Source of the DNA: Thermoleophilia bacterium
GTDB lineage: Bacteria > Actinomycetota > Thermoleophilia > BMS3ABIN01
Assembly (NCBI GenBank): GCA_014859345.1
Contig: JACUUL010000001.1
Coordinates: 2,720 to 66,719, forward strand
Direction of reading: 5' to 3'
Length of the DNA stretch: 64,000 nt
The translations under genes were made by a program, and so were the position numbers. How positions within the stretch are numbered: the first letter of the stretch is position 1; each line of letters begins with the position of its first letter. Below are positions 41,825 through 58,802 of this stretch, in pieces. Under the pieces are notes generated by a model, which did no database searches, was not told where the DNA came from, and saw only the letters and a program-made list of their open reading frames with translations.

Positions 41825-43068
41825 CAGGATCTCCTCATCCGGCCGCAATTTCCTCCGGCATGGATACCGGTGGCGTTTGGGCCGCGGGCGTCCCTGGGCG
41901 CGCCGGCGGCTGCCAGCCGCATCAGCGCGTTGGCGGCGGCAACGGCCACGTTGCTGCCGCCCCGGTGTCCGGGAAGGGTTATGTGGGGCAGGCCGGAATC
42001 CATCAGCGCCCGCTTGCTCTCAGCGGCGCCGATAAAGCCTACCGGGACCCCCACTATCAGAGCCGGCCGCGCCCCGGTTTCTTCTGCCAGCCGCAGGCAT
42101 TCGAACAGGGCGGTGGGGGCGTTGCCGATGACGATGATAGCGTCGCCGAGAGCGCCCGCGGCTCGGCGGATTCCCGCCGCGCCGCGCGTAATCCCTTCCC
42201 TTCGCGCCAGATTTAGTGTTTCCTCGCCGGTGATGCGGCAGCAGACATCCAGTCCCATCCTGGCGGCGGTGGGCTCTATCCCCGCCGCGACCATTTTGAC
42301 GTCACAGATGATCCGGGCATCCCCTCTGCCGGAGCTGCCGCTGGCCCTGGCGCCCCTCCAGCCGCCAGCATCCAATCCCCTGCCGGCATCGTTTCCGGTC
42401 CCGACATCATCATCTGCGCCGGTGCAGCCCGCGGCGGCGGCGCCATTCTCGAGGATGCGGAGGGCGGATCCGACAGCATCCCTGGAGAAAACCAGTTCTC
42501 CGGCCAGCCCCGGATCGCCGGTGGCATGAACCACGCGCCTGGTTATCTGATACTCGGGCGAAGCCGGATCGGAAGGCTTCAACATCTGGTCGATGACCTC
42601 AAAACTTTCTGACTCGATCGGGTGCTGGGGAAGGCTGGCGCGTTCGCTGCTGCCTGGAGGCGGACCGCTGCCACAGCGGCCGGCTACCGACTCTTCGATC
42701 CTGGCCAGCATCACATCCACCAGCCGTGAATCGGCGCCCAGCGAGCCGGCCAGGACCAGTTCGACCCCGGGAAGTTCCGTTTCCAGCTTTCTCAGCTCTT
42801 CGGGGATGTCAAGTTTCATGTGATTCCCGGCAAACAGGAAATATGGAGTCACCACGATTCGGCGGACGCCTCCGGCAGCCAGGTGGCGGCAGGATTCCGC
42901 CAGTGTGGGACGGTTAAACTGAAGTGAAGCCGCCGTCACCGGATATTCACAACGAGCGGCCAGCCGCCCGGCGACCCATTCCAGCAGCAGCGCTGCCTCC
43001 GGCGCCCGGCTGCCGTGCCCCAGCACCACCACGCCTGTTTTCAAAGCGTTGCCGAATTTTGCCGTCAT
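41824..43068 (-). CDS. cbiXC: Fused sirohydrochlorin cobaltochelatase (small CbiX-type) / cobalt-precorrin-8 methylmutase (CbiC)
   Basis: N-terminus VVVLGHGSRAPEA...PYFLFAGNH (CbiX). C-terminus IVIGNAPTALFECLRL...IVGVPVGFIGAAESK (CbiC). Confidence 0.7.
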   Translation of the reverse strand: MTAKFGNALKTGVVVLGHGSRAPEAALLLEWVAGRLAARCEYPVTAASLQFNRPTLAESCRHLAAGGVRRIVVTPYFLFAGNHMKLDIPEELRKLETELPGVELVLAGSLGADSRLVDVMLARIEESVAGRCGSGPPPGSSERASLPQHPIESESFEVIDQMLKPSDPASPEYQITRRVVHATGDPGLAGELVFSRDAVGSALRILENGAAAAGCTGADDDVGTGNDAGRGLDAGGWRGARASGSSGRGDARIICDVKMVAAGIEPTAARMGLDVCCRITGEETLNLARREGITRGAAGIRRAAGALGDAIIVIGNAPTALFECLRLAEETGARPALIVGVPVGFIGAAESKRALMDSGLPHITLPGHRGGSNVAVAAANALMRLAAAGAPRDARGPNATGIHAGGNCGRMRRS

Positions 43069-44534
43069 GCCGCCCTCCCGGACCCGGCGCAGGCTTCGAC
43101 GAAGCGTGCAGCCGCGCCATGATCCCCGGCGAAATGAATATGAACATACGAGGCCAGCAGGTTCCCCCGGCAGAAGCCATCCTGCTCCACTTCAGGCCGT
43201 TTGCTGGAAAAACAGTCGTAAGCCAGGCGGTCTTCCTGCCATTTGACCCGGGACCAGTGAAACTCGTGGCCTCGAACGCGTTCGCCTGCCTCCATCAGGA
43301 TGTTCGAAACCCGCGCCCTGGCTTCCACGTATCCCAGCGCCTGCCGGCGGCCGGTCATCCGGGCCTCGCTGTCAATGACCCCGGCCATCTCCCGGCGGCG
43401 GCCATTGACCTCCACTCCCCGGCAAAGATACACCATGCCGCCACACTCGGCATACGCCGGCAGGCCTGCCCGCAAGGCCGCCGCCACGGAGCGGCGCATG
43501 GCGCTGTTGGCTTCCAGCTGGCCGGCGAACACTTCCGGAAAGCCGCCGCCCAGATACAGGCCCTCGCAGGCGGGCAGGCCCTCATCGCGCAGCGGGCTGA
43601 ACCGGACCAGTTCGGCGCCGGCAGCTTCCAGCGCCTCCAGTCCGTCCGCATAATAAAAAGAGAAGGCCTCGTCCCTGGCCACTGCGATGCGCGGGCAGCG
43701 CCCGCCGGAATGATTCGGGCCCGGAGCAGCCTTGCCAGAGCCGCCTTCTGCCGCCATTTTTTCCGCCGGCCTGTCCGGGCCGGATCCGGTTTGTGCGCCC
43801 GGGATTCCCTGATTCTTCAACGGGCCTGCGTCTCTCGCAGATCCGCCGCCGGCGCCGCCGGCCATGGCAGCCACGGCTTCGATGTCGACGTTTCGCCCGA
43901 CGTGGTCGATGATGCTTTCCATCTTCCGGCCTGCTGCCTCCAGTTCGCTTTCCGGCACCAGGCCCAGTTGCCGCGAGCCCAGCGTTATGCCTTCCGCCCG
44001 CGGAATCTCGCCCAGAACCGGCACCCCCGCCTCGCGGGCGGCGTCCCTGAGAACGCGGGCGTGACCGGGGCTGCCCACGTTGTTTAAGATGACCCCCGCC
44101 AGGTCAATACTCCGGTCGAACCGGTCAAACCCCGTCAGCAGCGGAGCCAGGCTGCGGCCCAGCCGGGCGCAGTCGGCCACCAGCACCACAACGGCGCCGG
44201 TCAAACGCGCCATTTCGGCAGTGCTTCCCTCATCCCTGCCGCCGGCGCGCCCGTCGAACAGTCCCATCACTCCCTCGATGACGCCGATGTCCGCTCCGGC
44301 GGCGCCCCGGGCGTAAATTCTGCTTACCACCGCAGGCGATGTGAGCCAGGTATCAAGATTACGGGACAAGACTCCCGTCGCTCTCTGATGATAACCCGGG
44401 TCTATATAATCCGGGCCAACCTTGAAAGGAGCCACCGTAAAACCCTGCCGCCGCAAAGCCCCCATAATCCCGGTGGCGACAGTGGTCTTTCCAACGCCGC
44501 TGGCGTGTCCGGCTATTACCAGCGGGCGCTTCAC
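43065..44534 (-). CDS. cbiA: Cobyrinate a,c-diamide synthase
   Basis: MKRPLVIAGHASGVGKTTVATGIMGAL, plus a C-terminal glutamine amidotransferase domain. Confidence 0.85.
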   Translation of the reverse strand: MKRPLVIAGHASGVGKTTVATGIMGALRRQGFTVAPFKVGPDYIDPGYHQRATGVLSRNLDTWLTSPAVVSRIYARGAAGADIGVIEGVMGLFDGRAGGRDEGSTAEMARLTGAVVVLVADCARLGRSLAPLLTGFDRFDRSIDLAGVILNNVGSPGHARVLRDAAREAGVPVLGEIPRAEGITLGSRQLGLVPESELEAAGRKMESIIDHVGRNVDIEAVAAMAGGAGGGSARDAGPLKNQGIPGAQTGSGPDRPAEKMAAEGGSGKAAPGPNHSGGRCPRIAVARDEAFSFYYADGLEALEAAGAELVRFSPLRDEGLPACEGLYLGGGFPEVFAGQLEANSAMRRSVAAALRAGLPAYAECGGMVYLCRGVEVNGRRREMAGVIDSEARMTGRRQALGYVEARARVSNILMEAGERVRGHEFHWSRVKWQEDRLAYDCFSSKRPEVEQDGFCRGNLLASYVHIHFAGDHGAAARFVEACAGSGRAA

Positions 44535-45625
44535 GCCAGCGCCTTTTTCAGTGCGGAAATCAACTGGTAGTTCTCCTGGTCCGAGCGCACCGCCACCCGG
44601 ATGAACCGGTTGCCCAATTCCGGGAAGGAGCGGCAGTCACGCACCATAATGCCCATGCGCCCCAGGCAGTCAGCCAATTCATCCGAACCGGCGGTAGCGA
44701 GACGGCAGAGGATGAAATTCGCCTCCGATGGCAACGGGTCGATGCCGGGCAGGGAAGCCAGAGCCCGGAACAGCCGGAAACGGGACCGGAAGTTCACCCG
44801 TCTGGCCTCGAGCAGATAGGCGGTATCCGCCAGGGCCGCCCTGCCGGCGGCACGGGCAAAGACGTTTATATTCCAGGGAGGCATCATCTCCCGCAGCGAC
44901 AGGGCAAAATCCTCCCGCGCAACCAGGCAGCCCAGCCTCAGGCCCGCCAAGGCATGCGATTTGGTAAAAGAACGCACGACGAAGATTCCCTCTGCGGCAT
45001 CCCCGGTCAGGACAGAGGCGCCCTCACCGGCGAAATCGATGAAAGCCTCATCCACCACCAGGCCGGCGCCGGCGGCCCGGCATTGCCGCCACAACCAGAC
45101 GACTTCATCAGCCGGGACCAGATAGCCGGTGGGATTATTGGGATTGCAGAGAAACACCAGGTCATGACCCGCCGGGCGGATCCGTCTCACATCAAGAGCA
45201 AAATCTTCCTCTTCCCTTAACTTGAAGGAGTCGCAGGCGGCGCCGGCCGGCACGCAGGCGCGGCGGTACTCGGAAAATGTCGGTTCCACGACCAGGACCC
45301 GCGCGGGCTTGAGGGCTCTGACCAGCCAGTAAAGAACCTCGATGCTGCCGTTTCCGGGAACTACCCGGCAGGCAGGCACGTCCAGATATGCAGCCATCTG
45401 CTCCGCCAGTCCGGCCGCGTCCTCTTCCGGATAGTGGGAGATCTCCAAAGCCGCTCCCCTGACGGCAGCGGCCACCCCGGCAGGCGGTCCCAGCGGGTTG
45501 ATGCTGGCGCTGAAATCGAGAAGTTCCTCTTTGGGGATTCTGTAGCGCCGGGCAGCATCATCACGCCGGCCGCCATGGACCGGCGCCTTCCCGGACAACG
45601 TATCGGTATTACGCAAATCAGTCAT
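44531..45625 (-). CDS. cobD: L-threonine-O-3-phosphate decarboxylase (aminotransferase class I/II fold)
   Basis: Histidinol-phosphate aminotransferase-like PLP enzyme, positioned between cbiA and cobO/cbiB as in cob operons. Confidence 0.65.
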   Translation of the reverse strand: MTDLRNTDTLSGKAPVHGGRRDDAARRYRIPKEELLDFSASINPLGPPAGVAAAVRGAALEISHYPEEDAAGLAEQMAAYLDVPACRVVPGNGSIEVLYWLVRALKPARVLVVEPTFSEYRRACVPAGAACDSFKLREEEDFALDVRRIRPAGHDLVFLCNPNNPTGYLVPADEVVWLWRQCRAAGAGLVVDEAFIDFAGEGASVLTGDAAEGIFVVRSFTKSHALAGLRLGCLVAREDFALSLREMMPPWNINVFARAAGRAALADTAYLLEARRVNFRSRFRLFRALASLPGIDPLPSEANFILCRLATAGSDELADCLGRMGIMVRDCRSFPELGNRFIRVAVRSDQENYQLISALKKALA

Positions 45626-45704
45626 TCAAACTCCATCGTCGGCAGCAGTTTTCCGGAAACCTTCCGCGGTGGAAAGAAAGCGATCTTCCCGACCGTCCGG
45701 ACGT

Positions 45705-46298
45705 TCAATATTCCGTTCCTTCCCGGGCCCGGATACCATTCCGGAACGGGTGTTTGATCTTCTTCATTTCCGTGACGTAATCACAAATCTCCACCAGCTC
45801 CGGAGGCGCGTGCCTGCCTGTCAGCACCAACTCCAGGCTGTCGGCCTTGTCCCTGACAACCTCGATCAACTCCTGAAGAGGCACGAGTTCCTGCTTGACC
45901 ACATGGGTTACCTCATCAAGTATGACCAGGTCGTGATTGCCGCTTTTCACCAGCTCTTTCGAAACCTCCCACCCCCGGGCTACCGTCTGCCCGCTTTCCT
46001 CAACTTCACGTTTTTCTTCTTCCGTGGCGAACCGGGAGGCGCCGAACCGCTGGATGGTGAACGGCCCGTCCATCTTTTCCACGAACACTATCTCTCCCGT
46101 CTTCATCTTCGTGCGTTTCAGAAACTGGACCATGGCTACCCGGCGATCCCGCCCCAGTGCCCTGAGGGCCAGACCCAGAGCCGCGGTGGTCTTTCCCTTG
46201 CCGTCTCCGGTGTACAGATGAACCAGTCCCTGCCTGCGGGTCTGCTCCCAGATGACTTGCGCCAGCAGGTCATGATCCGGGGGTCTCTGGTCGTTCAT
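45705..46298 (-). CDS. cobO: Cob(I)yrinic acid a,c-diamide adenosyltransferase (CobA/BtuR type)
   Basis: HLYTGDGKGKTTAALGLALRALG P-loop. Start at ATG 46298, directly after the cbiB stop. Confidence 0.8.
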   Translation of the reverse strand: MNDQRPPDHDLLAQVIWEQTRRQGLVHLYTGDGKGKTTAALGLALRALGRDRRVAMVQFLKRTKMKTGEIVFVEKMDGPFTIQRFGASRFATEEEKREVEESGQTVARGWEVSKELVKSGNHDLVILDEVTHVVKQELVPLQELIEVVRDKADSLELVLTGRHAPPELVEICDYVTEMKKIKHPFRNGIRAREGTEY

Positions 46299-47287
46299 GG
46301 CCCGCCTCCGGTGCTTGAAACCCGCCTTCTTCCTCCGAGGCCCGCCAGCCATCTGAGCGCGGTGCCCGCTGCCAGGATCACCAGGGCCACGCCGTACATG
46401 AGACTGACAGCCCGGCCGATGTCGGCGCGGCCGGGAGGCCGTCCGGTTCCCATGGGCCGGGCATCAACCCTGCGGCCTCCATAGCAGCGGGCGCCTCCCA
46501 GACCGACTCCGAGGGCGCCCGCGAAGGCGGCCTCGCAAACGCCGGCGTTGGGGCTCTCGTGCCCGGCCCCGTCACTTAGCCAGACCTGGAGCGCTCTCCT
46601 GGCGTCGGCCCTTGCCAAGGGGCTTGCGACAACCGTTGCCAGCGCCGTGAGCCGCGCCGGCGCGTAACCGGCCAGATCATCAAGGCGGGCGGCTGCCCAG
46701 CCGAAGTCACGGTAGCGGTCGTTTTTGTAACCAATCATCGAATCCATGGTGTTAACCATCCTGTATGACAAAGCCAGCGGCGCTCCCCCGATGAACCCGT
46801 AAAACATGGGGGCCACGATCCCGTCATTGGTGTTCTCCGCCACGCTTTCCACCGCGGCCCTGGCCACCCCGGCCTCGTCCAGGCGGCCGGTGTCGCGGCC
46901 GACGATGCGAGCCACCTGCAGGCGGCCGGTTTCCAGGCTGTCGCCCAGTCCCTCCTCCACGTCGCGGGCCGCCTCTCCGAGGGAGCGTACGGTGATTGCC
47001 GAGGCCAGCATGGCCGCCTCGGCAACTCCGGCCAGGCGGCGCGGCGCAATCCTCAGTATTCCCCGGGCGGCAAGATAAGTACCCGCGGGCAGCGCCACGG
47101 CGATCAATATCCCGGCCAGGCGCCTCCAACCCGGGTTCAGTCCAGCCCTGTCCGCCGCCCTTTCAGCTTGCTCCACAACTTTTCCCATCAGGCAGACGGG
47201 ATGCACGGCCTCGGCCGGCTCTCCCACGGCCAGATCCAGCGCCAGCGCCAGTCCCGGCTTCATGCCCGGGCCAATGTTTCCGGGCAT
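46295..47287 (-). CDS. cbiB: Adenosylcobinamide-phosphate synthase
   Basis: ALALDLAVGEPAEAVHPVCLMGK, CbiB/CobD membrane protein pattern. Confidence 0.8.
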   Translation of the reverse strand: MPGNIGPGMKPGLALALDLAVGEPAEAVHPVCLMGKVVEQAERAADRAGLNPGWRRLAGILIAVALPAGTYLAARGILRIAPRRLAGVAEAAMLASAITVRSLGEAARDVEEGLGDSLETGRLQVARIVGRDTGRLDEAGVARAAVESVAENTNDGIVAPMFYGFIGGAPLALSYRMVNTMDSMIGYKNDRYRDFGWAAARLDDLAGYAPARLTALATVVASPLARADARRALQVWLSDGAGHESPNAGVCEAAFAGALGVGLGGARCYGGRRVDARPMGTGRPPGRADIGRAVSLMYGVALVILAAGTALRWLAGLGGRRRVSSTGGGP

Positions 47288-47390
47288 TACCGGCGCCCCT
47301 TTAAAACCTGCTCCCGCCCGCCCTCAGCAGTCTGCCACGGACGACGGCTGTCTTTCGGGAGATTGGGGCGGCTCACGCGCCAGGCAGCGT

Positions 47391-48950
47391 TCACGCCAAT
47401 CCTGCTATCTCATATATTTTCTCAATATCAACAGAGTTCCTCAGCGCCACGGCCAGCCGGTCGTATTCGTGCTCTTTCGCCGCGGCCCGGTCTATCAGCG
47501 GCAGCTCGGCCGGCATGCCGAACCAGGACAGCAGGCCTGCCAGCACCTCGTTACTGTCAAAGAATCCATGCATGTATGTGCCCAGCACCAAACCGTTTTC
47601 GCTTACGGCTCCGTCCGGGCCGGACCGCGTCCCCAGCAGATGCGCCGCCTGGGGCCCGAGGTATGTCTGACCCATATGAATCTCATAGCCGGACACTGCG
47701 GTGCCCCTCGGCAGCAGGGCGTTATAGCCGGTGATCCTCCCTGACTGCTGCCTCGTTTCCTTTTCAGGCTCAAAGACCGTCTCTACGTCAAGCAGGCCCA
47801 GGCCCTTGACGCTGCCGGCGCCGCCGTCCAGGCCGCGCCGGTCAAGGACTTTCTTGCCCAGCATCTGAAACCCGCCGCAGATGCCGATCACAGGCGTGCC
47901 GCCCTGTGCCCGGCGGATTACCTCAGCGGCAATGCCGCTCGACCAGAGAAAGCGCAGATCGGCGACCGTGCTCTTGGTTCCGGGGATGATGATCAGATCT
48001 GCCCCGCGCAGGCCGGCGGCGTGCTCCACGTAGCCGCATTCAAACCCGGGACAATCGCTCAAGGCATCAAAATCGGTGAAGTTGGAAAGACGCGGCAGTC
48101 TCAAAATGCGTACCCGGACGGGGTCGCCATGCCTGGCAGCCCTGTCCCCGCCGCCGCGCACGTCCGAGGGGAAGAGCGCCCTCGCGCCCTGTCCAGGGCC
48201 GGGTGGTTCAGATGAACGCTGCGGCAGCCCCACGGAATCCTCCTCTTCGACGCGCAGGTCCTTTACATAGGGAACCACGCCCAGCACCGGCCGCTGGCAA
48301 TGGCTCTCGAGAAAATCAAGTCCCGGCTCCAGGATAGTCCTGTCTCCCCGGAACTTGTTGATGATGAAGCCGGCAACCCTTTGCCGGTCGCTGTCCTGAA
48401 GCAGTTCCATGGTGCCCACCAGTTGGGCAAACACACCGCCGCGCTCGATGTCACCCACAAGCAGCACCGGCGCCTCGGCCATCTCGGCCACAACCATGTT
48501 GGCGATATCCCGCCCCCGGAAGTTCACCTCGGCAGGGCTGCCGGCCCCTTCGATGAGCACGACTTGGAAATCTCGTCTCAGCCGGTCCAGAGAGTCGTAT
48601 ACCGCGTCCATCAGCCCCATTTTGTAATCGTGGTAGTCTTGCGCGGTCATGGTAGCCACAGGCTTGCCCTGCACCACGACCTGGGCGCCGGTATCGGTGG
48701 TGGGCTTGAGCAGCACCGGGTTCATGTCGGTATGGGGTTTGACCCGGGCCGCTTCCGCCTGGACCACCTGCGCCCTGCCCATCTCGCCGCCCTCGGCGCT
48801 GACAAAGGAATTTAGCGACATGTTCTGGGATTTGAACGGCGCCACCGAGAAGCCATCCTGAGCCATGATGCGGGCCAGTCCGGCTACCAGCAGGGTTTTA
48901 CCGGCGTGGGAAGCGGTACCCTGGATCATTAGTGTCTTTGCCGCTGGCAT
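47391..48950 (-). CDS. cobQ: Cobyric acid synthase
   Basis: 519 aa. LMIQGTASHAGKTLLVAGL N-terminus plus C-terminal GATase domain. Confidence 0.85.
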   Translation of the reverse strand: MPAAKTLMIQGTASHAGKTLLVAGLARIMAQDGFSVAPFKSQNMSLNSFVSAEGGEMGRAQVVQAEAARVKPHTDMNPVLLKPTTDTGAQVVVQGKPVATMTAQDYHDYKMGLMDAVYDSLDRLRRDFQVVLIEGAGSPAEVNFRGRDIANMVVAEMAEAPVLLVGDIERGGVFAQLVGTMELLQDSDRQRVAGFIINKFRGDRTILEPGLDFLESHCQRPVLGVVPYVKDLRVEEEDSVGLPQRSSEPPGPGQGARALFPSDVRGGGDRAARHGDPVRVRILRLPRLSNFTDFDALSDCPGFECGYVEHAAGLRGADLIIIPGTKSTVADLRFLWSSGIAAEVIRRAQGGTPVIGICGGFQMLGKKVLDRRGLDGGAGSVKGLGLLDVETVFEPEKETRQQSGRITGYNALLPRGTAVSGYEIHMGQTYLGPQAAHLLGTRSGPDGAVSENGLVLGTYMHGFFDSNEVLAGLLSWFGMPAELPLIDRAAAKEHEYDRLAVALRNSVDIEKIYEIAGLA

Positions 48951-49012
48951 GCCTCAGGCCCTTTCCGGAAACCCGGGCACGGGAGCCGGCGTTTCTCTGT
49001 CCACGATTCTGA

Positions 49013-49549
49013 TCATTTCACCCTCACCGGCAAACCGGACACACACAGATAGACCTCGTCGGCAACCGCGGCCAGTTTCTGATTGGCGCGCCCGGCCAGG
49101 TCGCGGAAGACGCGGGCCAGAGCGTTGTCGGGGACGATGCCCATTCCCACCTCGTTGCTTACCAGAATGACGCGGCCGTTACCTTCCGATCGTGAAACGC
49201 AAAGTCCGGCCAGCCGTTCCATTTCCCCATCCACCAGCTTCTCCAGCCGCATCCCGGAGCCGGGCCCCTGGCTCAGCAACAGATTTGAGATGTATACAGT
49301 GAGGCAATCCACCAGCACGGTGCCGCCGCCGGCAAGCGCCGCCTCCACGGCGCCGGGCAGATCATCGTAAGCTTCCACGGTCTGCCATTCCCGGGGCCTT
49401 CGGCGCCGGTGTCCGGCTATGCGGTCGCCCATTTCGGCATCGCCGGCCCGGGCGGTGGCGATGTAGGTTACCCGGCCGCCATGCTCGCGGGCCAGCCTTT
49501 CCGCCAGGCTGCTCTTGCCGCTCCTGGCTCCTCCGGTAATGAATATCAT
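49013..49549 (-). CDS. cobU: Adenosylcobinamide kinase / adenosylcobinamide-phosphate guanylyltransferase
   Basis: MIFITGGARSGKSSLAERLA P-loop, 178 aa. Confidence 0.85.
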   Translation of the reverse strand: MIFITGGARSGKSSLAERLAREHGGRVTYIATARAGDAEMGDRIAGHRRRRPREWQTVEAYDDLPGAVEAALAGGGTVLVDCLTVYISNLLLSQGPGSGMRLEKLVDGEMERLAGLCVSRSEGNGRVILVSNEVGMGIVPDNALARVFRDLAGRANQKLAAVADEVYLCVSGLPVRVK

Positions 49550-49639: not shown

Positions 49640-49800
49640 CGTTTGAGGCTAGAGCCTGCGGGCAGGTTTCCTGGCTCCCGGCGCCATGACTTCTGTTGAA
49701 TACATACGCGCGCGCCGGCTACAGTGGCGGGACCGCGCCGGCATCAAACCGGCTTCCCCTGCACGCCCGGTCTCAAAAATTCCGGACGCATGCCACAGGC
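49640..49800 (-). promoter_or_regulatory. Cobalamin (B12) riboswitch in the 5' leader of the cobU-led cob operon
   Basis: Minus strand reads ...GCAGGGGAAGCCGGUUUGAUGCCGGCGCGGUCCCGCCACUGUAGCCGG...GAAGUCAUGG...GGAGCCAGGAAACCUGCC... It contains the B12-box GCCACUG plus the conserved GGGAAGCCGGU..UCCGGCGCGGUCCCGC and GAGCCAGGA.ACCUGCC blocks of RF00174-type cobalamin riboswitches. Confidence 0.75.
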
Positions 49801-49861
49801 TGCAGCTATAATGACTGATTTTGGAAGTATACGGGCAGGCGAGAGGTTTTTCAAGAATGCT

Positions 49862-51253
49862 TTAGCGGAATATCAGCTCATAAAAATAAAACCCCGTAAA
49901 AAAGGCGTAGAAGAGGACCGCGGCAAGGGTGGCGGCTATCCACACGGGTCCGGGGGCGAGCGCACGGGGCAGCCTCCGCAAGTTCAGGTAGAGGGTAACG
50001 GATACGACCACGGGAATATGCGCCGCGGAAATTGCCCCGCCTATGAACAAAATGCCGACTGGATCACGGAGCAGGAGGTAAACCGCGACCGGCGCGGCCG
50101 TTAGCACCGCGATGACATAACCGTTCCTCAGAAGCAGCCGCCGCCGCGGTTTGGAGGATTCATCAATCCCGCGGCGCCTCAGCAGTATCAAGGTGGCGTC
50201 GGCATACATTCTTCCCCATCCATCCTGGTTCGCCAGAACAGAGCCCCACAGGGCCACAAAGATGCCGGTGACAAAAACCCAGGTTCCCGCGGGACCCCAT
50301 ACATCGGAGAGAAGCCTGGCGATATCCTCGGCCACCCGGATTCCCTCGGGGACGATCCCGAGCGGAGCCAGCAGCTCGGCGCCGAGTGTAAGAAAGGAAA
50401 CGTTGACGACAGTCGCTCCGACCACGCCTATGGCTGCCGTCGTTCCGGTGATGATCATCCATGAGCGCAGGCTCGCCTGCCTGCCGGCTGCCGAAACGGC
50501 CTTGCCTTGTTCGTCATCCTGCTCTTCCTCCTCGAATACAGGCCCTCCAAAGCCCCGCGCCGCAACCCAGTACGAGTACCACATCATGCCGGCCGCTCCC
50601 GCCAAAAGAAATCCAAACCAGGGAAGCACGAAATGCGCGTCGAAGTCCAGAGGCAGGACCGGAGCCAGGCCATGTGCGTACGGGCCGAATCCGGGAAAAA
50701 CAACGATCGCGGTGACGACCGTCGATACAATAAGAACAGCGGCCAAGCCGGCCGTCACCTTTTCCAGATGCCTGTACCTTCCGCTGACCACCAGCGCGCT
50801 CGAGACAAGAATAATGCCGACCGCAAAATAAGCCTGCCTTTCCGGCAGGACGATCCCCAGCGCGCTGCCGATCAACGCGGCAATGCCGGCCACCACCACG
50901 ATGCCGCTGGCCAGCCCAGGCAGAAAAATGAGCCATACTATCCATCCCCTGGGACCCGGAATGCCGTAATACCCTTCGAGAATGGATCTCCCGGAAACGA
51001 CGGTGTAACGGCCGATTTCACGAATGATTACCCAGGTCAGAAAAGCCACCAGCAAGGCAGCCCAGAGAAGTTCATACCCGTAGCGCGATCCGACTCTGGG
51101 CGTAAACAGTATCGAGCCGGACCCTACGGAGGAGACCATCCAGAGGAGCCCCGGGCCGTACCATTTCAGCCGTCTCCATCCGCCTGGAGCGACAGCCACC
51201 CTGTCCCGGCAGTGCTCCCGGCCGTTCTGTTGGGGAGTTTCGATATCGGGCAC
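49862..51253 (-). CDS. Nramp-related membrane transporter with a non-canonical metal-binding motif
   Basis: 463 aa. YGPGLLWMVSSVGSGSILF...GSRYGYELLW follows the Nramp TM1 pattern (GPGfl...YiDPGN...G..fGY.LLW), but DPGN is replaced by SVGSGS. Confidence 0.5.
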   Translation of the reverse strand: MPDIETPQQNGREHCRDRVAVAPGGWRRLKWYGPGLLWMVSSVGSGSILFTPRVGSRYGYELLWAALLVAFLTWVIIREIGRYTVVSGRSILEGYYGIPGPRGWIVWLIFLPGLASGIVVVAGIAALIGSALGIVLPERQAYFAVGIILVSSALVVSGRYRHLEKVTAGLAAVLIVSTVVTAIVVFPGFGPYAHGLAPVLPLDFDAHFVLPWFGFLLAGAAGMMWYSYWVAARGFGGPVFEEEEQDDEQGKAVSAAGRQASLRSWMIITGTTAAIGVVGATVVNVSFLTLGAELLAPLGIVPEGIRVAEDIARLLSDVWGPAGTWVFVTGIFVALWGSVLANQDGWGRMYADATLILLRRRGIDESSKPRRRLLLRNGYVIAVLTAAPVAVYLLLRDPVGILFIGGAISAAHIPVVVSVTLYLNLRRLPRALAPGPVWIAATLAAVLFYAFFTGFYFYELIFR

Positions 51254-51368: not shown

Positions 51369-52055
51369 TTACGGGTTATGTTCCACCATCTCGTCGAAAT
51401 CAACCTGCAGGATGCCCTTGCGGATGGCGTAGCGCACAAGTTCGGCGCGCTTGTGCAGGTTGAGCTTCTCCATGATGTTGGCCTTGTGGGTTTCCACCGT
51501 CTTGACGCTGATGAACAGGCTCTCAGCGATCTCCCGGTTGGTGTATCCCTCGGCCACCAGCCGAAGAATTTCCCGCTCCCGCTCGGTCAACGCATCGAAG
51601 CTCGAGGTTGGCTCCTGGCCCGCTTTCAGCTTCTCCAGGTAATCCTCGACCACCATCTTGGCGGCGGATGGATAGAGAAAGCAGTCTCCCCGGGAAACCA
51701 CGTGGATGGCGTTGACCAGGTCGCTGTCGGCGGCCTTCTTCAGCACGTAGCCTGAGGCGCCCGCCTGGAGAACCTGGAACAGGTACTCCTCGTTGTCGTG
51801 CATGGTCAGCACCAGCACCTTGACATCATTGTCCCGTTTCTTTATCTGCTTGGTGGCCTCCATGCCGTTCATCACCGGCATGCCGATGTCCATCAGCACG
51901 ATGTCCGGATGCAGCTCCTGCGTTTTCTGGACCGCTTCGCGGCCGTTTTCAGCCTCGCCGACGATCTCGATGTCGCTCTCCTCGCCTAACAGGCGCATCA
52001 GGCCCGAGCGCAGGATTGCGTGGTCGTCGGCGAGCAATATCCTGATCTTGCTCAC
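51369..52055 (-). CDS. Response regulator, NarL/LuxR family
   Basis: ILLADDHAILRSG...DIVLMDIGMP receiver domain, plus C-terminal LuxR HTH (REREILRLVAEGYTNREIAESLFISVKTVETH). Confidence 0.85.
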   Translation of the reverse strand: MSKIRILLADDHAILRSGLMRLLGEESDIEIVGEAENGREAVQKTQELHPDIVLMDIGMPVMNGMEATKQIKKRDNDVKVLVLTMHDNEEYLFQVLQAGASGYVLKKAADSDLVNAIHVVSRGDCFLYPSAAKMVVEDYLEKLKAGQEPTSSFDALTEREREILRLVAEGYTNREIAESLFISVKTVETHKANIMEKLNLHKRAELVRYAIRKGILQVDFDEMVEHNP

Positions 52056-53164
52056 CAGATGCCCTCCTTGTTAGTATCGATTGGAACTTCGAAGAAGATA
52101 GTGGAGCCATGGCCCGGCCTGGTATCAAACCCGAGCGAGCCGCCCACCAGCTCGATTCTTTCCTTCATGCCGTGCAAGCCGAGCCCCCGGCCCTGCTCGG
52201 ACATAACCTCCTGCGAGTCAAACCCCTGGCCGTTGTCCGATATCGATCCTTCTATCCCGTTGCCTTTGTGCTTGAGCAGAACTCGGCACTCGCTGGCTCC
52301 GGAGTGCCGGGCAACATTGGTTAGGGCCTCCTGGACTACCCGGTATAATACCGTCTCCATCTCGGGAGATAACCTCTGTGACAGCACCAGCGGCTGAATA
52401 TCCACGGCAATACCGGTATTTGCGGAAAATTCCTTGACGTAAGAGCGAAGCGCTGCCGAGAGCCCCAGATCGTCGAGCACGCTGGGCCTGAGCCTGATGG
52501 CCATGGTATGAACCTCGTTAAGCGTCGAATGAGCCAGGTCGCTGATGCCGTTCAGACGCTCCTTGATTTCCGCCATGCCATCCGGAACCACTTCCTCCAC
52601 CATCCTGATGCCGATCACCAGCCCGGTCAGGGACTGGCTGGTCTCGTCGTGAAGCTCTCGCGCGATCCGCTTGCGCTCCTCTTCCTGGGCCTGGATCACC
52701 GACGCCGCCGCCCGCCGGCGCTGCCACTCCATGGAGTTGAGCATGGCGTTCAGGCTCTTGGAAAGATCCTCGATCTGGGGATCGTCCCTGACCTCCGGCA
52801 CGCGGATGCCGCGGTGCCCGGCGCGTATCGCCTTCATCGTGTCGGTTACGTCATCAAGAGGCCGGAAGGCCAGCTTGACCAGCAGATAATTAACCAGGAT
52901 GGAAAGTGAGACGCCGCTGGCAAGGAACAAAACCAGGTATCCGAGCTCGCCATCCTGGAAATACAACTTCTGCAGATAGATGCCCAGGCTGGCGCCGATG
53001 GCGATGAGGATGGTGTTCGCGATGACGACTTTCTGAAAAAGGGGGCGCCTCTTGACCCGGTCCATGACCGGATTGACATAATCGCAGATACACCGGTCCC
53101 AGACCTCCTGCCTCGGGGGAGACGCAGCCGCATCGACCTGTTCAATTGCTTCCTGGCTTCCCAT
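52052..53164 (-). CDS. Sensor histidine kinase (HisKA_3/NarX-DegS type)
   Basis: Two TM helices, then ELHDETSQSLTGLVIGI (H-box of HisKA_3) and an HATPase_c region. 4-nt overlap with the response regulator gene. Confidence 0.8.
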   Translation of the reverse strand: MGSQEAIEQVDAAASPPRQEVWDRCICDYVNPVMDRVKRRPLFQKVVIANTILIAIGASLGIYLQKLYFQDGELGYLVLFLASGVSLSILVNYLLVKLAFRPLDDVTDTMKAIRAGHRGIRVPEVRDDPQIEDLSKSLNAMLNSMEWQRRRAAASVIQAQEEERKRIARELHDETSQSLTGLVIGIRMVEEVVPDGMAEIKERLNGISDLAHSTLNEVHTMAIRLRPSVLDDLGLSAALRSYVKEFSANTGIAVDIQPLVLSQRLSPEMETVLYRVVQEALTNVARHSGASECRVLLKHKGNGIEGSISDNGQGFDSQEVMSEQGRGLGLHGMKERIELVGGSLGFDTRPGHGSTIFFEVPIDTNKEGIW

Positions 53165-54378: not shown

Positions 54379-54771
54379 CTACGGCTGCCTGCGCCAGGGC
54401 CAGCGGCCATCCACCTCCACCTCCAGGGTGAAGCTCAGGAATGTCCGCACCAGCACGATGGCAGCCAGGACTCCCACGTTCTGAAAGGTGGGCGAGATGG
54501 CGACGGTGCGGATGATGTCGGCGGCGATGAGCACTTCCAGGCCGAGCAGAATGGCCCGGGCCATGCTCTGACGGCCCCGCTGGAAGGCAACCGGCCGTTG
54601 TTCCCGGTTGAAGAAACGGGCGCTAAACGTAATCAGGCCCGCCGCTGTTCCCAAAACGATGACAGCGACCCCCAGGATGTCCAGCGACTTGCCGACCAGC
54701 TCTACTGTCTCGCTGAATTCCATGGCTCCCTTCGGAAGCAGAAGGAGCTCACAAATCCATACGGCTTCCAT
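54379..54771 (-). CDS. DUF1622-family small membrane protein
   Basis: MEFSETVELVGKSLDILGVAVIVLG...ILLGLEVLIAADII pattern. Chosen over the overlapping plus-strand 283-aa ORF. Confidence 0.45.
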   Translation of the reverse strand: MEAVWICELLLLPKGAMEFSETVELVGKSLDILGVAVIVLGTAAGLITFSARFFNREQRPVAFQRGRQSMARAILLGLEVLIAADIIRTVAISPTFQNVGVLAAIVLVRTFLSFTLEVEVDGRWPWRRQP

Positions 54772-54917: not shown

Positions 54918-55946
54918 CTAGGCAGCCTTGCGCATCTGCGCCCGGCGGCTTATGTATCCGGCCGCGTCGACAACCCGGCGCGCGTACCCCCATTCGTTGT
55001 CGTACCATGCCACCACTTTCACGGTATGGCCGTTGATGGCCATGGTTGAGGAGGCGTCCACCACCGCTGAATAGGTGCTGCCGATTATGTCGGACGAAAC
55101 CAGCGGTTCCTCGCTGATGCCCAGGATGCCGCGCATCTCTTCGGCGGCCGCGCGCCGGCGGATAGCCTCATTGACCTTTTCCTCATCAACCGTCCGCTCC
55201 GTGTTGGCCACGAAATCGATTACGGAGCCGCAGAGCACCGGCACCCGCATTGCCATGCCGTTGACCTTGCCTCTGAGCTGCGGCAGGGTCTCGGCCGTGG
55301 CGATGGCCGCGCCGGTGGTGGCGGGAACGATGTTGTGCGCTCCCGCCCGGCCCCTGCGCCAGTCCTTGCCGGGCTTGTCCACTATCCCCTGGCCGCTCGT
55401 GAGGGCGTGCACGGTGGTCAGCAGGCCTTCCACGATGCCGAATTCCTCGTCCAGCACCTTCGCCACCGGCGCCAGGCAGTTGGTGGTGCAGGAGGCGTTG
55501 GATATCACCAGGTGATCCGAGGGATCGAACTTATCCTCGTTCACCCCCATGCAGATGGTGATATCAGCGCCCTTGGAGGGCGCCGTCACCAGAACCCGCT
55601 CGGCGCCGGCGTCAAGATGTCTGCCGGCCTCGGTCCTGGCGGTGAAGGCGCCGCTGGCCTCGATCACGGTTTCGACCCCCTTTTCGCCCCACGGCAACTG
55701 TTCCGGATCGCTGATTCTGGTGAAGGGTATCTGCCGGTCGTCCCAGGAAAGCATGCCGTCATTTACGCCGATACTGGCGTCTGGAGACGAATACACGCTG
55801 TCGTGAAGCAGCAGATAGGCCAGATTCTCCAGGTCCGCGACGTCGTTGATCGCCACCACTTCAAGGCCGTCGCCACTTTCCATGATCTGGCGGAAGGTGA
55901 GCCGCCCGATCCGCCCAAACCCGTTGATTGCTACCTTGGTCGCCAT
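54918..55946 (-). CDS. gapA: Glyceraldehyde-3-phosphate dehydrogenase, type I
   Basis: MATKVAINGFGRIGR and active-site SNASCTTNCLAP. Confidence 0.9.
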   Translation of the reverse strand: MATKVAINGFGRIGRLTFRQIMESGDGLEVVAINDVADLENLAYLLLHDSVYSSPDASIGVNDGMLSWDDRQIPFTRISDPEQLPWGEKGVETVIEASGAFTARTEAGRHLDAGAERVLVTAPSKGADITICMGVNEDKFDPSDHLVISNASCTTNCLAPVAKVLDEEFGIVEGLLTTVHALTSGQGIVDKPGKDWRRGRAGAHNIVPATTGAAIATAETLPQLRGKVNGMAMRVPVLCGSVIDFVANTERTVDEEKVNEAIRRRAAAEEMRGILGISEEPLVSSDIIGSTYSAVVDASSTMAINGHTVKVVAWYDNEWGYARRVVDAAGYISRRAQMRKAA

Positions 55947-56021
55947 GATCCTACCTCCCATAAGAAGAAATCAGTACTCCTTGATGACTTCCCGATATGG
56001 CAGGTTCGAAACCGGGCAGAT

Positions 56022-57068
56022 CTACTGTTCTTCCATCTCCGGTCTGTACTCCCCGAGCAGGGCGGCTCCATTGAGGCGCGCCCGTTTCAGAAGCGCCTCC
56101 TGCGCCGGCCCCCGGTTGCCCGGCTGGCCCTTCCATGCCCGTAGCGCCGAGGCCTGCAGGGCCCGCCCGTAGGAGAAGCTCAGATGCCAGGGAGCGACGC
56201 TGCCGGCGGCATTTATCGCGTTGAGATTGGCCGTGGCCTGCTGCTCGCTTAGTCCCCCCGAAAGGAAGACCACACCGGGCAGCTCATCCGGCAGCACCTC
56301 GCTCAGGCAATCGATCGTCATCCGGGCCACTTCGGCCTCATCGGCCTGGACGGCCGCGTCCGCGCCGCTTACGACCATGTTCGTCTTCAGCAGAATCTGG
56401 GGAAAAGGCACCCGGTACAGCGCCAGCCGGTCAAAGACGGCGGCCAGGGTCCGCCGGGTCGCGTCGTAGCACTGCCGGATCGAATGTCCGCCATCCATCA
56501 GGACTTCAGGCTCGACGATGGGCACCAGGCCGTGCTCCACGCAAAGAGCAGCATAATAGGACTGCACGTGGGCGTTGGCTTCGATGCAGTAGTCCGTGGG
56601 CAGGCCGTCGCCGACGGAATACACGGTCCGGAACTTGGCAAACCGGGCGCCCAGCGACCGGTACTCCGGTAACCGCTCCGCCAGGCCGTCGAGGCCCTCG
56701 GTGATCTTCTCGCCCTTGGAGCCCGCAAGGTCCTTAAGGCCCTTGTCGACCTTGATTCCCGGAATGATGCCCCTGCGAGCCAGGACCCCGGCCAGCGGCG
56801 TGCCGTCGCCGGCCTGCTGACGGATCGTCTCATCAAACAGAATGACGCCGCCGATAAATTCCTCGATGCCCTCGGCGGTAAATAGGATCTCCCGGTAGGA
56901 CCGCCGGTTTTCCTCGGTTGATTCCACCCCGATCTGATCGAACCTCTTCTTGATGGTGCCCGAGCTTTCGTCGGCGGCCAGGATGCCCTTCCCGTCGCAG
57001 AGGGCGAGAGCTGTTTCTTCGAGGGCTGGAGCTGAAGCGACCGGATCGTTCTGCTCTGACATTTTCAC
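56022..57068 (-). CDS. fbaB: Fructose-bisphosphate aldolase, class I
   Basis: GILAADESSGTIKKRF and the overall class I FBA pattern. Confidence 0.85.
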   Translation of the reverse strand: MKMSEQNDPVASAPALEETALALCDGKGILAADESSGTIKKRFDQIGVESTEENRRSYREILFTAEGIEEFIGGVILFDETIRQQAGDGTPLAGVLARRGIIPGIKVDKGLKDLAGSKGEKITEGLDGLAERLPEYRSLGARFAKFRTVYSVGDGLPTDYCIEANAHVQSYYAALCVEHGLVPIVEPEVLMDGGHSIRQCYDATRRTLAAVFDRLALYRVPFPQILLKTNMVVSGADAAVQADEAEVARMTIDCLSEVLPDELPGVVFLSGGLSEQQATANLNAINAAGSVAPWHLSFSYGRALQASALRAWKGQPGNRGPAQEALLKRARLNGAALLGEYRPEMEEQ

Positions 57069-57296: not shown

Positions 57297-57360
57297 AGCC
57301 GGTGACAGGATTCGAACCCGTGGCCTGCTGATTACAAATCAGCTGCTCTAGCCAACTGAG
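57284..57360 (-). tRNA. tRNA-Thr (anticodon UGU), CCA encoded
   Basis: Minus strand reads GCCGGTGTAGCTCAGTTGGCTAGAGCAGCTGATTTGTAATCAGCAGGCCACGGGTTCGAATCCTGTCACCGGCTCCA. It folds into a cloverleaf: acceptor GCCGGTG/CACCGGC, D arm GCTC..GAGC, anticodon loop TTTGTAA, T loop TTCGAAT. Confidence 0.85.
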
Positions 57361-57553
57361 CTACACCGGCTCGGGGCAGGCGCGCCTGGCTTTATTCCGT
57401 GCGCTGGAATAAATAAACCGCACGATGACGCTCAACGCCGAAGCAGGATTATTATACCCGAGGATCATTGGAGAACGAATCCGGGATCAAACACTCGATC
57501 CCTCAACAACGCGGATTCAGGTCATCGGCAAAATATGCGCCGGTGATATGGCG

Positions 57554-58243
57554 TTAAAGGATGACCTGGCGGCTTTGAAGGTGTAAATCCACCTTGCGCT
57601 TGATGCGCTGCAGAGCGTTGTCCACGCTCTTGGTGTCGCACTTGAGACGGGCCGCGATCGCCTCGTATGAGCGCCCTTCCAGGTAAAGCCCCAGGACACT
57701 GGTCTCGAGGTCGCTGAGCAGGCGGGCCAGGCAGTCCTTGAGGCTGTCGACCTCCTCGGAGCTGATGACCTGGTTCAGCGGATCGTGTACGGGAGACCCG
57801 GGCAGGATGTCGCCCAGCGAACATTCGCCCTCGTCATGCGAACCGGGGCTGTGGCTGAGAGACAGGTAACTGTTAAGGGGAGCATGTTTCTGGCGGGAAG
57901 CCGTCTTGATAGCGGTGATGATCTGCCTGGTGATGCAGAGTTCGGCGAAACTGCGGAAGGAAGCCTCACGGTCATCCCGGTAGTCGCGAATCGCCTTGTA
58001 GAGGCCTACCAGCCCCTCCTGGATCAAATCGTCGATGTCGCCGCCATACATGAAATAGGAGCTGGCCTTGAGCTTCACGAATCCCTGGTACTTGCAGATC
58101 AGTTGCTCATAGGCATCGATCCGGCCGGCGCGGACCTCCTCCAGAAGGGCCAGATCCTCATCCTGAGGAGTAGGTTTAGAGATTGAATCCTGGTTACCGG
58201 GTTCAGCGGAAGATCTCGTTTTTTTCCCACGTGAAGATCTCAA
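57554..58243 (-). CDS. sigH: RNA polymerase sigma factor, sigma-70 family (SigH-like)
   Basis: Region 2 block IDAYEQLICKYQGFVKLKASSYFMYGGDIDDLIQEGLVGLYKAIRDYRDDREASFRSFAELCITRQI. Lies downstream of yacP and cysS as in Bacillus/Clostridia. Start uncertain (TTG at 58243 suggested; the track ORF extends to 58408 and overlaps yacP). Confidence 0.6.
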   Translation of the reverse strand: MRSSRGKKTRSSAEPGNQDSISKPTPQDEDLALLEEVRAGRIDAYEQLICKYQGFVKLKASSYFMYGGDIDDLIQEGLVGLYKAIRDYRDDREASFRSFAELCITRQIITAIKTASRQKHAPLNSYLSLSHSPGSHDEGECSLGDILPGSPVHDPLNQVISSEEVDSLKDCLARLLSDLETSVLGLYLEGRSYEAIAARLKCDTKSVDNALQRIKRKVDLHLQSRQVIL

Positions 58244-58292
58244 GACTTCCCCCTCTCTCTGCCTTACGGCAAATAGTTCGGGATTTGCGCCC

Positions 58293-58802
58293 CTACCTAC
58301 CTCCTCTGCGCAGCCGCTCGAGCTTCTCCAAAGTCTCAACGTCAAGCTTATGCTCAAGCTTCCAACGGATTCTATCCTTTTTTGTGCTTTTTGCAACCCT
58401 TTTTTCAAGATTTTTTATTTCTGCTATGAAATGGCGGGGCGGTATGCGCTCAACCCGCGGCTGCATCGCTCCCTTCTGAACCTCCCAATCCGCGCTAACT
58501 ACCCGGATACGCTGACGCGTCCCGGCCAGATGCTGCTGCACCAGCCGGCCGATGATGACATCTGCGCTTTCGGCGGCTGAGGCGAACTTGAGCGTAACCG
58601 GAGTCCCTTGGATAGAGTGGCTCTTTGAAGCGCGGGCCTGAGCGGAATCAAAGACGATGATGGTTTTGACGCCCATGGAAGCCGCGTGGCTGATAACTCC
58701 CTCTACGAACCGCCGTCGCTTCTCCTCCAGCTCCCCGGCCCGGAGGCCGCCATCACCCTCCATGGCGTGCATCACGTTGTAGCCGTCAATGATGTAGATC
58801 AT
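58293..58802 (-). CDS. yacP: NYN-domain ribonuclease, YacP/Rae1-like
   Basis: MIYIIDGYNVMH N-terminal NYN/PIN-like motif, 169 aa. Conserved position between cysS and sigH. Confidence 0.55.
   Translation of the reverse strand: MIYIIDGYNVMHAMEGDGGLRAGELEEKRRRFVEGVISHAASMGVKTIIVFDSAQARASKSHSIQGTPVTLKFASAAESADVIIGRLVQQHLAGTRQRIRVVSADWEVQKGAMQPRVERIPPRHFIAEIKNLEKRVAKSTKKDRIRWKLEHKLDVETLEKLERLRRGGR

Follow-up and report, generated by a model that had tools for sequence, protein, structure and literature searches.

The window analysed here (the whole stretch of 64,000 nucleotides from contig JACUUL010000001.1 of Thermoleophilia bacterium) carries on its minus strand a gene for an Nramp-related transporter in which, as read from aligned sequences, every side chain that binds Mn, Fe or Co or relays protons in canonical Nramps is replaced. 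The gene encodes a real, intact and conserved membrane carrier. On balance, we lean towards regarding it as an orphan 'G-motif' carrier and not a Co, Mn or Fe Nramp, with a function tied in its lineage to a module of sugar-oxidation enzymes and an ASRT-domain protein. The gene and its diagnostic segments are as follows (TM, transmembrane helix).

49862..51253, minus strand: transporter open reading frame (ORF), 463 amino acids, Nramp-related ('G-motif', Asp-less) LeuT-fold protein with 11 predicted TM helices
51113..51124, minus strand: TM1 motif G44-S45-G46-S47, opposite canonical DPGN (DAGG in NRMT) in gapless alignments
50875..50886, minus strand: TM3 segment G123-I-A-A126, opposite the acids of the canonical proton relay, with G123 unchanged throughout the clade
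50567..50599, minus strand: start of TM6b, G219-AAGMMWYSY-W229, replacing the canonical GATxMPH region (secondary structure assigned with DSSP on the model; conservation)
50210..50230, minus strand: TM8 motif N342-Q-D344-G-W-G-R348, specific to the clade and its nearest sisters
50036..50038, minus strand: TM10 G406, invariant, opposite the metal-coordinating TM10 Gln ('SQ') in the profile alignment to BfraNramp domain 2

TM1 of the window protein reads WYGPGLLWMVSSVGSGSILFTPRVGSRYGYELLW. An earlier reading of the sequence only had proposed that the DPGN metal-binding motif is replaced in this helix while the downstream G..YGYELLW block is conserved, and both observations held. Three independent alignments, each gapless across the segment, placed GSGS (residues 44-47) opposite DPGN of DraNramp (phmmer), opposite DAGG of EleNRMT (clade profile) and opposite DPGN in the alignment of Escherichia coli MntH (hhalign); the homologue set of the last consisted only of sequences at least 87% identical, which makes it a usable reference and a poor profile. 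The window protein and canonical Nramps have the GPG flank and the [YF]G[YF]xLLW block in common. An offset DPGN was excluded: neither the alignments with MntH and NRMT nor a scan of every helix for motifs and charges revealed an equivalent elsewhere in the protein. The scan detected no acidic residue in TM1 (residues 25-58), and the strings DPG, DPxN and MPH were absent from the entire protein.

The replacement is conserved. Across a clade set of 121 sequences (the window protein and 120 homologues at 45-72% identity), G44, S45 and G46 never vary, and 107 of the sequences have S47. The string VGSGS[VI]LFTPR is near-invariant across the 120 homologues, with L49, F50, T51, P52 and R53 likewise invariant. 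As G44, S45 and G46 are unchanged in homologues down to approximately 45% identity, GSGS is neither a chance match nor a private mutation; it is a clade trait, and strong purifying selection maintains the replacement pattern across phyla.

Similar substitutions were observed in the other helices that form the canonical site. In TM3, S116, G123 and A126 stand opposite E124, D131 and E134 of DraNramp (phmmer), aGiaa stands opposite TDIAE of ScaDMT (clade profile), and G123 and A126 stand opposite D109 and E112 of E. coli MntH (hhalign); a charge scan detected no charged residue in this helix. The TM10 Gln, which completes coordination of the metal when canonical Nramps are in their occluded state, corresponds to Gly. 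TM6b begins right after a break predicted at residues 217-218 (DSSP on the AF2 model) and across the clade reads G219-A-A-G-[IM]-M-W225-[FY]-S-Y-W229, with G219, W225 and W229 invariant. Since the hhalign alignment with E. coli MntH covers TM1-TM5 only (probability 80%) and the HMMER clade-profile alignment through TM6 carries a 2-residue indel, equivalents of the canonical TM6 Ala, Met and His were not assigned. Overall, the replacements comprise TM1 Asp/Asn to Gly/Ser, TM3 Asp/Glu to Gly/Ala and TM10 Gln to Gly, together with the lack of a TM6 Met-Pro-His, and the site-forming helices are rich in Gly and aromatic residues. The charge scan found no acidic residue within the TM1, TM3, TM4 or TM6 helices. 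D344 in TM8 is the sole mid-helix acidic residue and lies one turn from the invariant R348; D352, 8 residues further along the same helix, is near-invariant, as is H412 in TM10. A role of the TM8 motif in ion or substrate binding is something that we only infer.

The transporter starts with GTG at 51253, with AAGGAG 3 nt upstream and an alternative GTG at codon 19. The window protein is 100% identical to an NCBI protein entry from 'MAG: Thermoleophilia bacterium'. This public protein (P0001, 425 aa) is annotated from Met39, by which the segment 51139-51253 (minus strand) is cut. The Met39 start removes the first 38 residues, and with them the GPG and the clade-invariant W31 at the opening of TM1 (conserved WYGPG), and is probably wrong. 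Terminator-like hairpins within the gene (3, with 2.8 expected) were taken as chance.

Despite these substitutions, the protein is a member of the Nramp superfamily and not of another APC-fold family. The AF2 model built on the clade alignment (pLDDT 89.9, pTM 0.90) contains 11 long helices; TM1 is modelled as a single continuous helix with weaker confidence (pLDDT ~75 at residues 31-50). Searches of this model against the PDB with Foldseek gave the following target-normalised TM-scores.

EleNRMT: 0.85, the best match
DraNramp: 0.83
BfraNramp: 0.83
Bacillus subtilis YcsG model (9a52): 0.78
Human NRAMP1: 0.66-0.69
Human DMT1: 0.65
APC amino-acid carriers, NSS and cation-chloride carriers: about 0.3-0.6

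The top 25 matches are all Nramp, NRMT or YcsG structures, and the Setaria NRAT structure followed as a weaker match at rank 28. An unrelated APC-fold family was thus excluded, as the Nramps score far above APC transporters and no AA_permease Pfam match was detected. Among family models, Pfam PF01566 was passed weakly (41.3 bits, cutoff 29.8) and NCBIfam NF037982 over its whole length (132.6 bits, positions 1-403 of 404, cutoff 50), in agreement with the original assignment as Nramp-related, while the MntH-specific models NF001923 (34.8 versus 430 bits) and TIGR01197 (24.2 versus 272.5 bits) failed. NF037982 is permissive: at its cutoff of 50 bits it accepts E. coli MntH (319 bits), the GSGS clade (~130 bits) and a range of Asp-less relatives (84-150 bits). 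Fold-level membership is therefore all that the public name 'Nramp family divalent metal transporter' conveys. This name and 'Mn2+/Fe2+ NRAMP family transporter' are attached to the protein and hundreds of its relatives and are functionally unsupported, and inferences on metal homeostasis drawn from them, the cobalt idea discussed below included, are unsafe.

The window protein shares with canonical Nramps (DraNramp, ScaDMT, EcoDMT and E. coli MntH) the 11-TM LeuT fold (target-normalised TM-score about 0.8), the GPG at the start of TM1, the [YF]G[YF]xLLW block in TM1b-TM2 and R-x-x-x-V-T-G at the end of TM2. However, it has none of the DPGN, AxxMPH, TM3 Asp/Glu and TM10 Gln that mark canonical Slc11/Nramp/MntH proteins, and it falls below the cutoffs of the curated MntH models. 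It likewise lacks the NRMT signature of DxxG (TM1) and TxxA/T (TM6) with a TM1 Asp. NRATs carry DxxN and are plant proteins, whereas here GSGS is found in a bacterial host. Pfam and NCBIfam scans detected no homology to CbiMNQO, NiCoT or CbtA-type cobalt transporters.

NRMTs (EleNRMT 7QIA, CabNRMT) come closest among the named systems. Among PDB sequences, EleNRMT matched the clade profile best (E 1.6e-10), and it also has the best TM-score; both groups have a small residue in place of the Asn, lack the proton-relay residues and carry small residues that suggest a larger pocket. However, NRMTs require the TM1 Asp and the TM10 Gln for transport and keep both (PMC8806188); the window protein has Gly44 and Gly406 there. 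Furthermore, an M-box or MgtE-like small gene is frequent, if not obligatory, near NRMTs; no M-box was found in the window or in 8 related loci (Rfam), and a neighbour census of 86 loci contained no MgtE-like neighbour. The described branches with altered specificity retain the TM1 Asp (NRMT, DxxG-TxxA/T; NRAT, DxxN-AxxT; PMC8806188). As the window protein does not, import of some other cation is not the default reading. The sequence-only reading had likened the protein to NRMT; the likeness is apt, with EleNRMT as the best PDB sequence match, but the substitution exceeds that in NRMT or NRAT, with the TM1 Asp gone too.

Two further systems invite comparison. The APC amino-acid transporters AdiC, BasC and LAT1 also adopt the LeuT fold and contain G-S-G in the region of TM1, where the GSG binds the substrate carboxylate through its backbone. 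Their TM-scores are about 0.5-0.6, however, and with no AA_permease match in the window protein the GSG resemblance may be convergent or trivial. YcsG (also MntG or PxpT) is, like the window protein, a non-canonical Nramp-family member, placed in 'G-motif 3' in a preprint (PMC12873925), and it provides a precedent for operon linkage to organic-substrate metabolism. It differs in its pxpABC (5-oxoprolinase) context, which is neither lactone-oxidase- nor ASRT-related, and it is likened here by fold and description. The YcsG/PxpT members are required for 5-oxoproline use, which has been ascribed to 5-oxoproline uptake (PMC13274462); in contrast, another study reported Mn import and renamed the protein MntG (PMC10448178). 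The precedent for an organic substrate among non-canonical Nramp-family proteins is therefore contested.

Nramp homologues with a replaced DPGN are an already recognised class, and the gene adds a member to a described orphan group. According to Cellier, PF01566 comprises Slc11 proper, an 'orphan' outgroup and NRMT, and the outgroup logo shows TM1 ...A[ASG][FI][IVT]-G-P-G-[TS], TM6 G-T-x-x-[VP]-[PGT]-Y and a single conserved TM3 Glu (PMC9606685, PMC10606218). A 2026 preprint from the Gaudet laboratory describes 'Nramp-related' proteins as paraphyletic, with diverse residues replacing DPGN and MPH and a non-polar TM3/TM9; it names 'NRMT-like' and 'G-motif' groups and calls them 'entirely uncharacterized' apart from EleNRMT and the hypothesised MntG (YcsG) (PMC12873925). 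By sequence, the window protein meets the verbal definition of an Nramp-related G-motif protein in that preprint. It shares with Cellier's orphan outgroup and the G-motif groups the Nramp fold, the exchange of TM1 Asp for Gly and of Asn for Ser/Thr, the lack of MPH and of the TM3/TM9 proton pathway, a broad and patchy prokaryotic distribution and an orphan function. However, the published logo of the outgroup, which resembles these motifs, has GPG[TS] in TM1, GT..[VP][PGT]Y in TM6 and a TM3 Glu, in contrast to GSGS, GAAG[IM]MW and an Ala at the Glu position here. New in this study are the TM3 and TM10 replacements, the loss of the TM1 Asp beyond what is seen in NRMT and NRAT, the unsupported public name, the coincidental neighbourhood of cobalamin genes and the cluster context in relatives.

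The clade is rare and widely scattered, with approximately 96 matches in 185,579 species-representative genomes. Hosts of the homologues include Desulfonatronum, many cyanobacteria, Actinomycetota, Bacteroidota, Gamma- and Alphaproteobacteria, Planctomycetota, Nitrospirota, Campylobacterota and Myxococcota. When 1.84 billion cluster representatives were searched exhaustively with HMMER, 1,694 clusters were retrieved at E < 1e-3, which are 50%-identity clusters and may include canonical Nramps; at E < 1e-30 there were 60. At the DPGN position, the full-length relatives with 24-37% identity carry GSGE, GTGE, GGGE or G[AT]SH, and the nearest sisters (42-44% identity) read GSGE. As Asp occurs there in none of these relatives, the GSGS clade forms one of the branches of a large Asp-less radiation. 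The radiation is orphan, and its substrates bear on the origin of metal selectivity within the LeuT fold. The distant relatives (P0123, P0128, P0135 and the set P0160-P0267) mostly have Glu at the Asn position (GSGE/GTGE). The largest distant subgroup also has a TM6 Glu (G[AV]GASEL), and another subgroup reads G[AT]SH; the GSGE/GTGE, TM6-Glu and G[AT]SH subgroups may be distinct specificity classes among Nramp-related proteins. In the longer distant relatives (555-727 aa), a search for fused domains returned only Nramp matches, and their long N-terminal extensions had no Pfam match.

Genomic context provides the link to sugar oxidation. Seven loci carry a close relative of the transporter, defined as at least 63% identical (63-72%) to the window protein: Desulfonatronum lacustre (L001), a Nitrospirota metagenome-assembled genome (L086) and five loci from metagenomes (L007, L008, L090, L091 and L092). 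In all seven, the transporter is the last gene of a co-directional cluster with the following order.

Position 1: FMN-dependent LLM oxidoreductase, related to F420 glucose-6-phosphate dehydrogenases (TIGR03885, 516 bits), in 5 of 7 loci
Position 2: GH15 trehalase/glucoamylase-like protein (TreH1-like), in 5 of 7 loci
Position 3: FAD-linked sugar-1,4-lactone-oxidase-like protein (ALO; TIGR01679, 361 bits), in 7 of 7 loci
Position 4: ASRT-domain protein of ~125 aa (PF07100), in 7 of 7 loci
Position 5: transporter, in 7 of 7 loci

In four of these loci, the transporter start and the ASRT stop codon share 4 nt. ASRT-like proteins are predicted cytoplasmic sugar sensors with a proposed physical action on neighbouring enzymes or transporters, and their genes often lie beside a glycolate-oxidase-related FAD oxidoreductase (PMC2739507). 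The gene string looks like an undescribed route from trehalose or glucose via an aldonolactone to an ascorbate- or erythorbate-like product. Literature searches found no published account of this gene string or of a link between Nramps and ASRT, gulonolactone, trehalase or desiccation. An Rfam scan of 8 related loci detected no riboswitch or other regulatory RNA upstream of the clusters. The string occupies the ~3-5 kb upstream of the transporter, sometimes includes an extra cyclase/arylformamidase-like gene and is often located near catalase and superoxide dismutase (SOD) genes. In L090, which holds the closest relative, a second ASRT gene is found beside a gene for a YihY/BrkB membrane protein (contig positions 10630-12356 and 12495-14909, both minus strand), near a GH65 disaccharide phosphorylase. 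This YihY/BrkB protein is fused to a weak Rrf2-like C-terminal domain; the parallel to an Rrf2 regulator in the window is possibly coincidence. BrkB/YihY also recurs near the more distant members L003, L013, L015, L019 and L089.

If the preferred reading is correct, the protein would operate as a secondary transporter with a LeuT fold and rocking-bundle alternating access. The putative pocket would be formed by the TM1 Gly/Ser stretch, the broken TM6 with its Trp and Tyr, the Gly-rich TM3 and N342/Q343/D344 of TM8. Such chemistry would be a poor fit for bare Mn2+, Fe2+ or Co2+ and better suited to a larger polar ligand or a hydrated ion, and selection of bare transition-metal ions is unlikely. 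D344 and the TM1 loop could provide a coupling-ion site between TM1 and TM8. Our preferred guess at the substrate is a small polar organic molecule of sugar/aldonolactone metabolism (a sugar, aldonate, lactone or ascorbate-type compound). That the substrate is specifically sugar-derived is, within the preferred reading, a tentative proposal that ranges from doubtful to possible. A regulatory role as cytoplasmic sugar sensor may fall to the ASRT protein in the close relatives. A stronger version, in which members of the GSGS clade carry a sugar-derived organic solute and are gated by the translationally coupled ASRT sensor, strikes us as rather doubtful; candidate solutes may be an aldono-lactone, an ascorbate/erythorbate-type product or a sugar feeding the trehalase, LLM dehydrogenase and lactone oxidase in turn. 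In the window genome the cluster would have been lost, and the transporter could be expressed together with, or under the control of, an upstream HisKA_3/NarL two-component system. If the stronger version is true, part of the Nramp superfamily would have a metal-independent function and a new kind of soluble regulatory subunit, and the clade might mark a bacterial stress-induced antioxidant pathway. The linkage to ASRT, lactone oxidase, trehalase and LLM genes is in any case a concrete, testable handle on one orphan group.

Several observations weigh against this interpretation. The linkage is only sporadic among the more distant clade members: in approximately 80 loci at no more than 52.5% identity, ASRT occurs in ~8, the LLM gene in ~7 and a PRK06701-type SDR in ~13, while BrkB/YihY, AI-2E, amylase/GDE-type enzymes, SOD and catalase are occasional. 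Most gammaproteobacterial copies of the transporter stand alone. ASRT, ALO, GH15 and LLM genes were absent from the window by tblastn, as were MgtC and AA-permease genes, and as the window has no ASRT/ALO cluster the context of the relatives may not transfer to its copy. Furthermore, the pocket-lining residues and the substrate assignment are putative, and TM6 cannot be aligned residue by residue with canonical Nramps.

Other observations point to a metal, and support a divergent divalent-metal importer (for Mn2+ or, as in NRMT, hydrated Mg2+) with a relocated or water-mediated site that feeds oxidative-stress enzymes. We consider this alternative unlikely, although it retains a real share of the probability. 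Its site may consist of D344/N342/Q343 in TM8, H412 in TM10 and, from TM1 and TM6, Ser hydroxyls and backbone carbonyls. EleNRMT, a Mg2+ transporter, matches the clade profile best among PDB sequences, and the many Gly substitutions widen the pocket in the manner of the N-to-G and M-to-A exchanges of NRMT (PMC8806188). Genes for Fe/Mn-SOD, catalase and ferric reductase lie near several members and would equally fit a Mn supply. Increased Mn uptake has been reported for YcsG/MntG (PMC10448178) and, by complementation, for an Acidobacterium member of the NRMT group (PMC4072509). Metal transport can tolerate altered sites, since EcoDMT binding-site mutants still carry Mn (PMC8806188). However, the TM1 Asp is common to Mg2+ and Mn2+ sites and its mutation strongly compromises transport (PMC8806188), whereas the position is an invariant Gly here, and the TM10 Gln and TM3 acids are lost as well. 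Neither an M-box nor a Mn or other relevant riboswitch was detected in the window (where only RF00174 was found) or in the 8 related loci, and the neighbour census contained no MntR- or Fur-type gene.

The habitats of the hosts suggest another role, transport of a monovalent or small inorganic ion (Na+, K+, H+ or an anion) during adaptation to salt or alkaline conditions, where a Na2-like site would be built from the TM8 Asp and the Gly/Ser loop of TM1. Halophiles or alkaliphiles are frequent among the hosts (Desulfonatronum, Halomonas/Billgrantia, Marinobacter, Nesterenkonia, Salinimicrobium, Halovibrio), D344 as the sole mid-helix acid lies in TM8 opposite the Gly/Ser-rich TM1, and Foldseek also matched the LeuT-fold ion carriers KimA and NKCC/NCC at lower scores. 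However, the habitat pattern comes from a plain listing of hosts, no conserved osmoregulatory neighbour (Trk, Kdp, ectoine) appeared in the neighbour census, and the aromatic TM6b/TM8 and the tight linkage to ASRT and sugar enzymes point to an organic ligand. We therefore consider an ion carrier clearly improbable.

The neighbourhood of the transporter in the window differs from that in the close relatives and includes the following elements.

51369-52055, minus strand: NarL/GerE response regulator (Pfam), 115 nt upstream of the transporter
52052-53164, minus strand: HisKA_3/HAMP histidine kinase with two TM helices (Pfam), upstream of the transporter
49826..49854, minus strand: sigma70-like promoter TTGAAA-17-TATACT (10/12 consensus match), in the 50-nt gap between the stop codon and the riboswitch
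49643..49812, minus strand: cobalamin riboswitch RF00174 (60.1 bits, E 2.2e-12), upstream of cobU
43065..49549, minus strand: cob operon of cobU, cobQ, cbiB, cobO, an aminotransferase gene and cbiA (Pfam), an adjacent, unrelated unit

The positions given in the sequence-only reading were correct: the transporter lies upstream of the B12 riboswitch and the cob operon, and the HisKA_3 kinase, the NarL-type regulator and an Rrf2 gene lie upstream of it. A cobalt, magnesium or other cation importer had been suggested there. The cobalt version, an importer serving the adjacent cobalamin operon, draws on the same-strand adjacency to the riboswitch and operon and on the ability of canonical Nramps to carry Co2+ (PMC9606685). 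However, the riboswitch begins 50 nt past the transporter stop codon; as it lies downstream, it cannot regulate the transporter and acts only on cobU-cobQ-cbiB-cobO-aminotransferase-cbiA. The promoter-like site in the gap (the scan returned 2 sites with 0.7 expected by chance) suggests that the cob genes form a separate transcription unit. Among 91 loci with related transporters (1.1 Mb searched by tblastn with the six cob proteins and Rrf2), none had cob genes or Rrf2 beside the transporter. In addition, the canonical soft-metal ligands, Met included, are all absent, and the closest relatives sit in sugar-oxidation clusters. A link to cobalt or B12 was rejected on riboswitch orientation, promoter scan and the 91-locus search, which leaves a cobalt importer barely credible. 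The adjacency appears to be a coincidence specific to this genome, and for the window gene itself the result is mostly deflationary: a member of a described orphan group with a chance cob neighbour.

Co-transcription with, or regulation by, the upstream HisKA_3/NarL pair is possible, as the 115-nt gap contains no terminator-like or promoter-like site on the minus strand. Similar kinase and regulator genes were found by tblastn near the clade transporter in only a few of the 91 loci. The pair bears on one more explanation, that the protein does not transport and instead serves as a sensor ('transceptor') or a regulatory partner in the membrane, acting via ASRT in the relatives or via the two-component system here. 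In Anabaena, a membrane protein, sensory rhodopsin, is the binding partner of ASRT, for which a mode of action by contact has been proposed (PMC2739507), and the window gene follows an intramembrane-type HisKA_3 kinase. However, the 11 helices, broken TM6 and gating-region conservation of working LeuT-fold carriers are all retained, the kinase/regulator linkage is not conserved and the signalling would be hypothetical, so that we regard a sensor as very improbable.

Other features of the window were recorded. A stand-alone Rrf2 regulator gene lies 2.2 kb upstream of the transporter. The segment 2955-7925 (minus strand) has a GC content of 0.50-0.52, compared with ~0.60 elsewhere, and includes a B12-binding radical-SAM gene at 6474-7925; two ORFs at 2955-4508 and 4556-6100 (minus strand, ~515 aa each) had no Pfam match at E <= 1e-5. 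Near position 32000, the GC content steps from ~0.556 (24-32 kb) to 0.63-0.67 (32-48 kb, into the cob operon). A small DUF1622 membrane protein gene (54379-54771, minus strand) lies between the Rrf2 regulator and the GAPDH gene; one related locus (L067) has a homologue (47% identical) at a distance of ~3 kb from the transporter, probably by chance. Further upstream, the neighbours are housekeeping genes.

54918-55961, minus strand: GAPDH
56022-57068, minus strand: class I fructose-bisphosphate aldolase
57297-57370, minus strand: tRNA
57554-58408, minus strand: sigma-70-family factor

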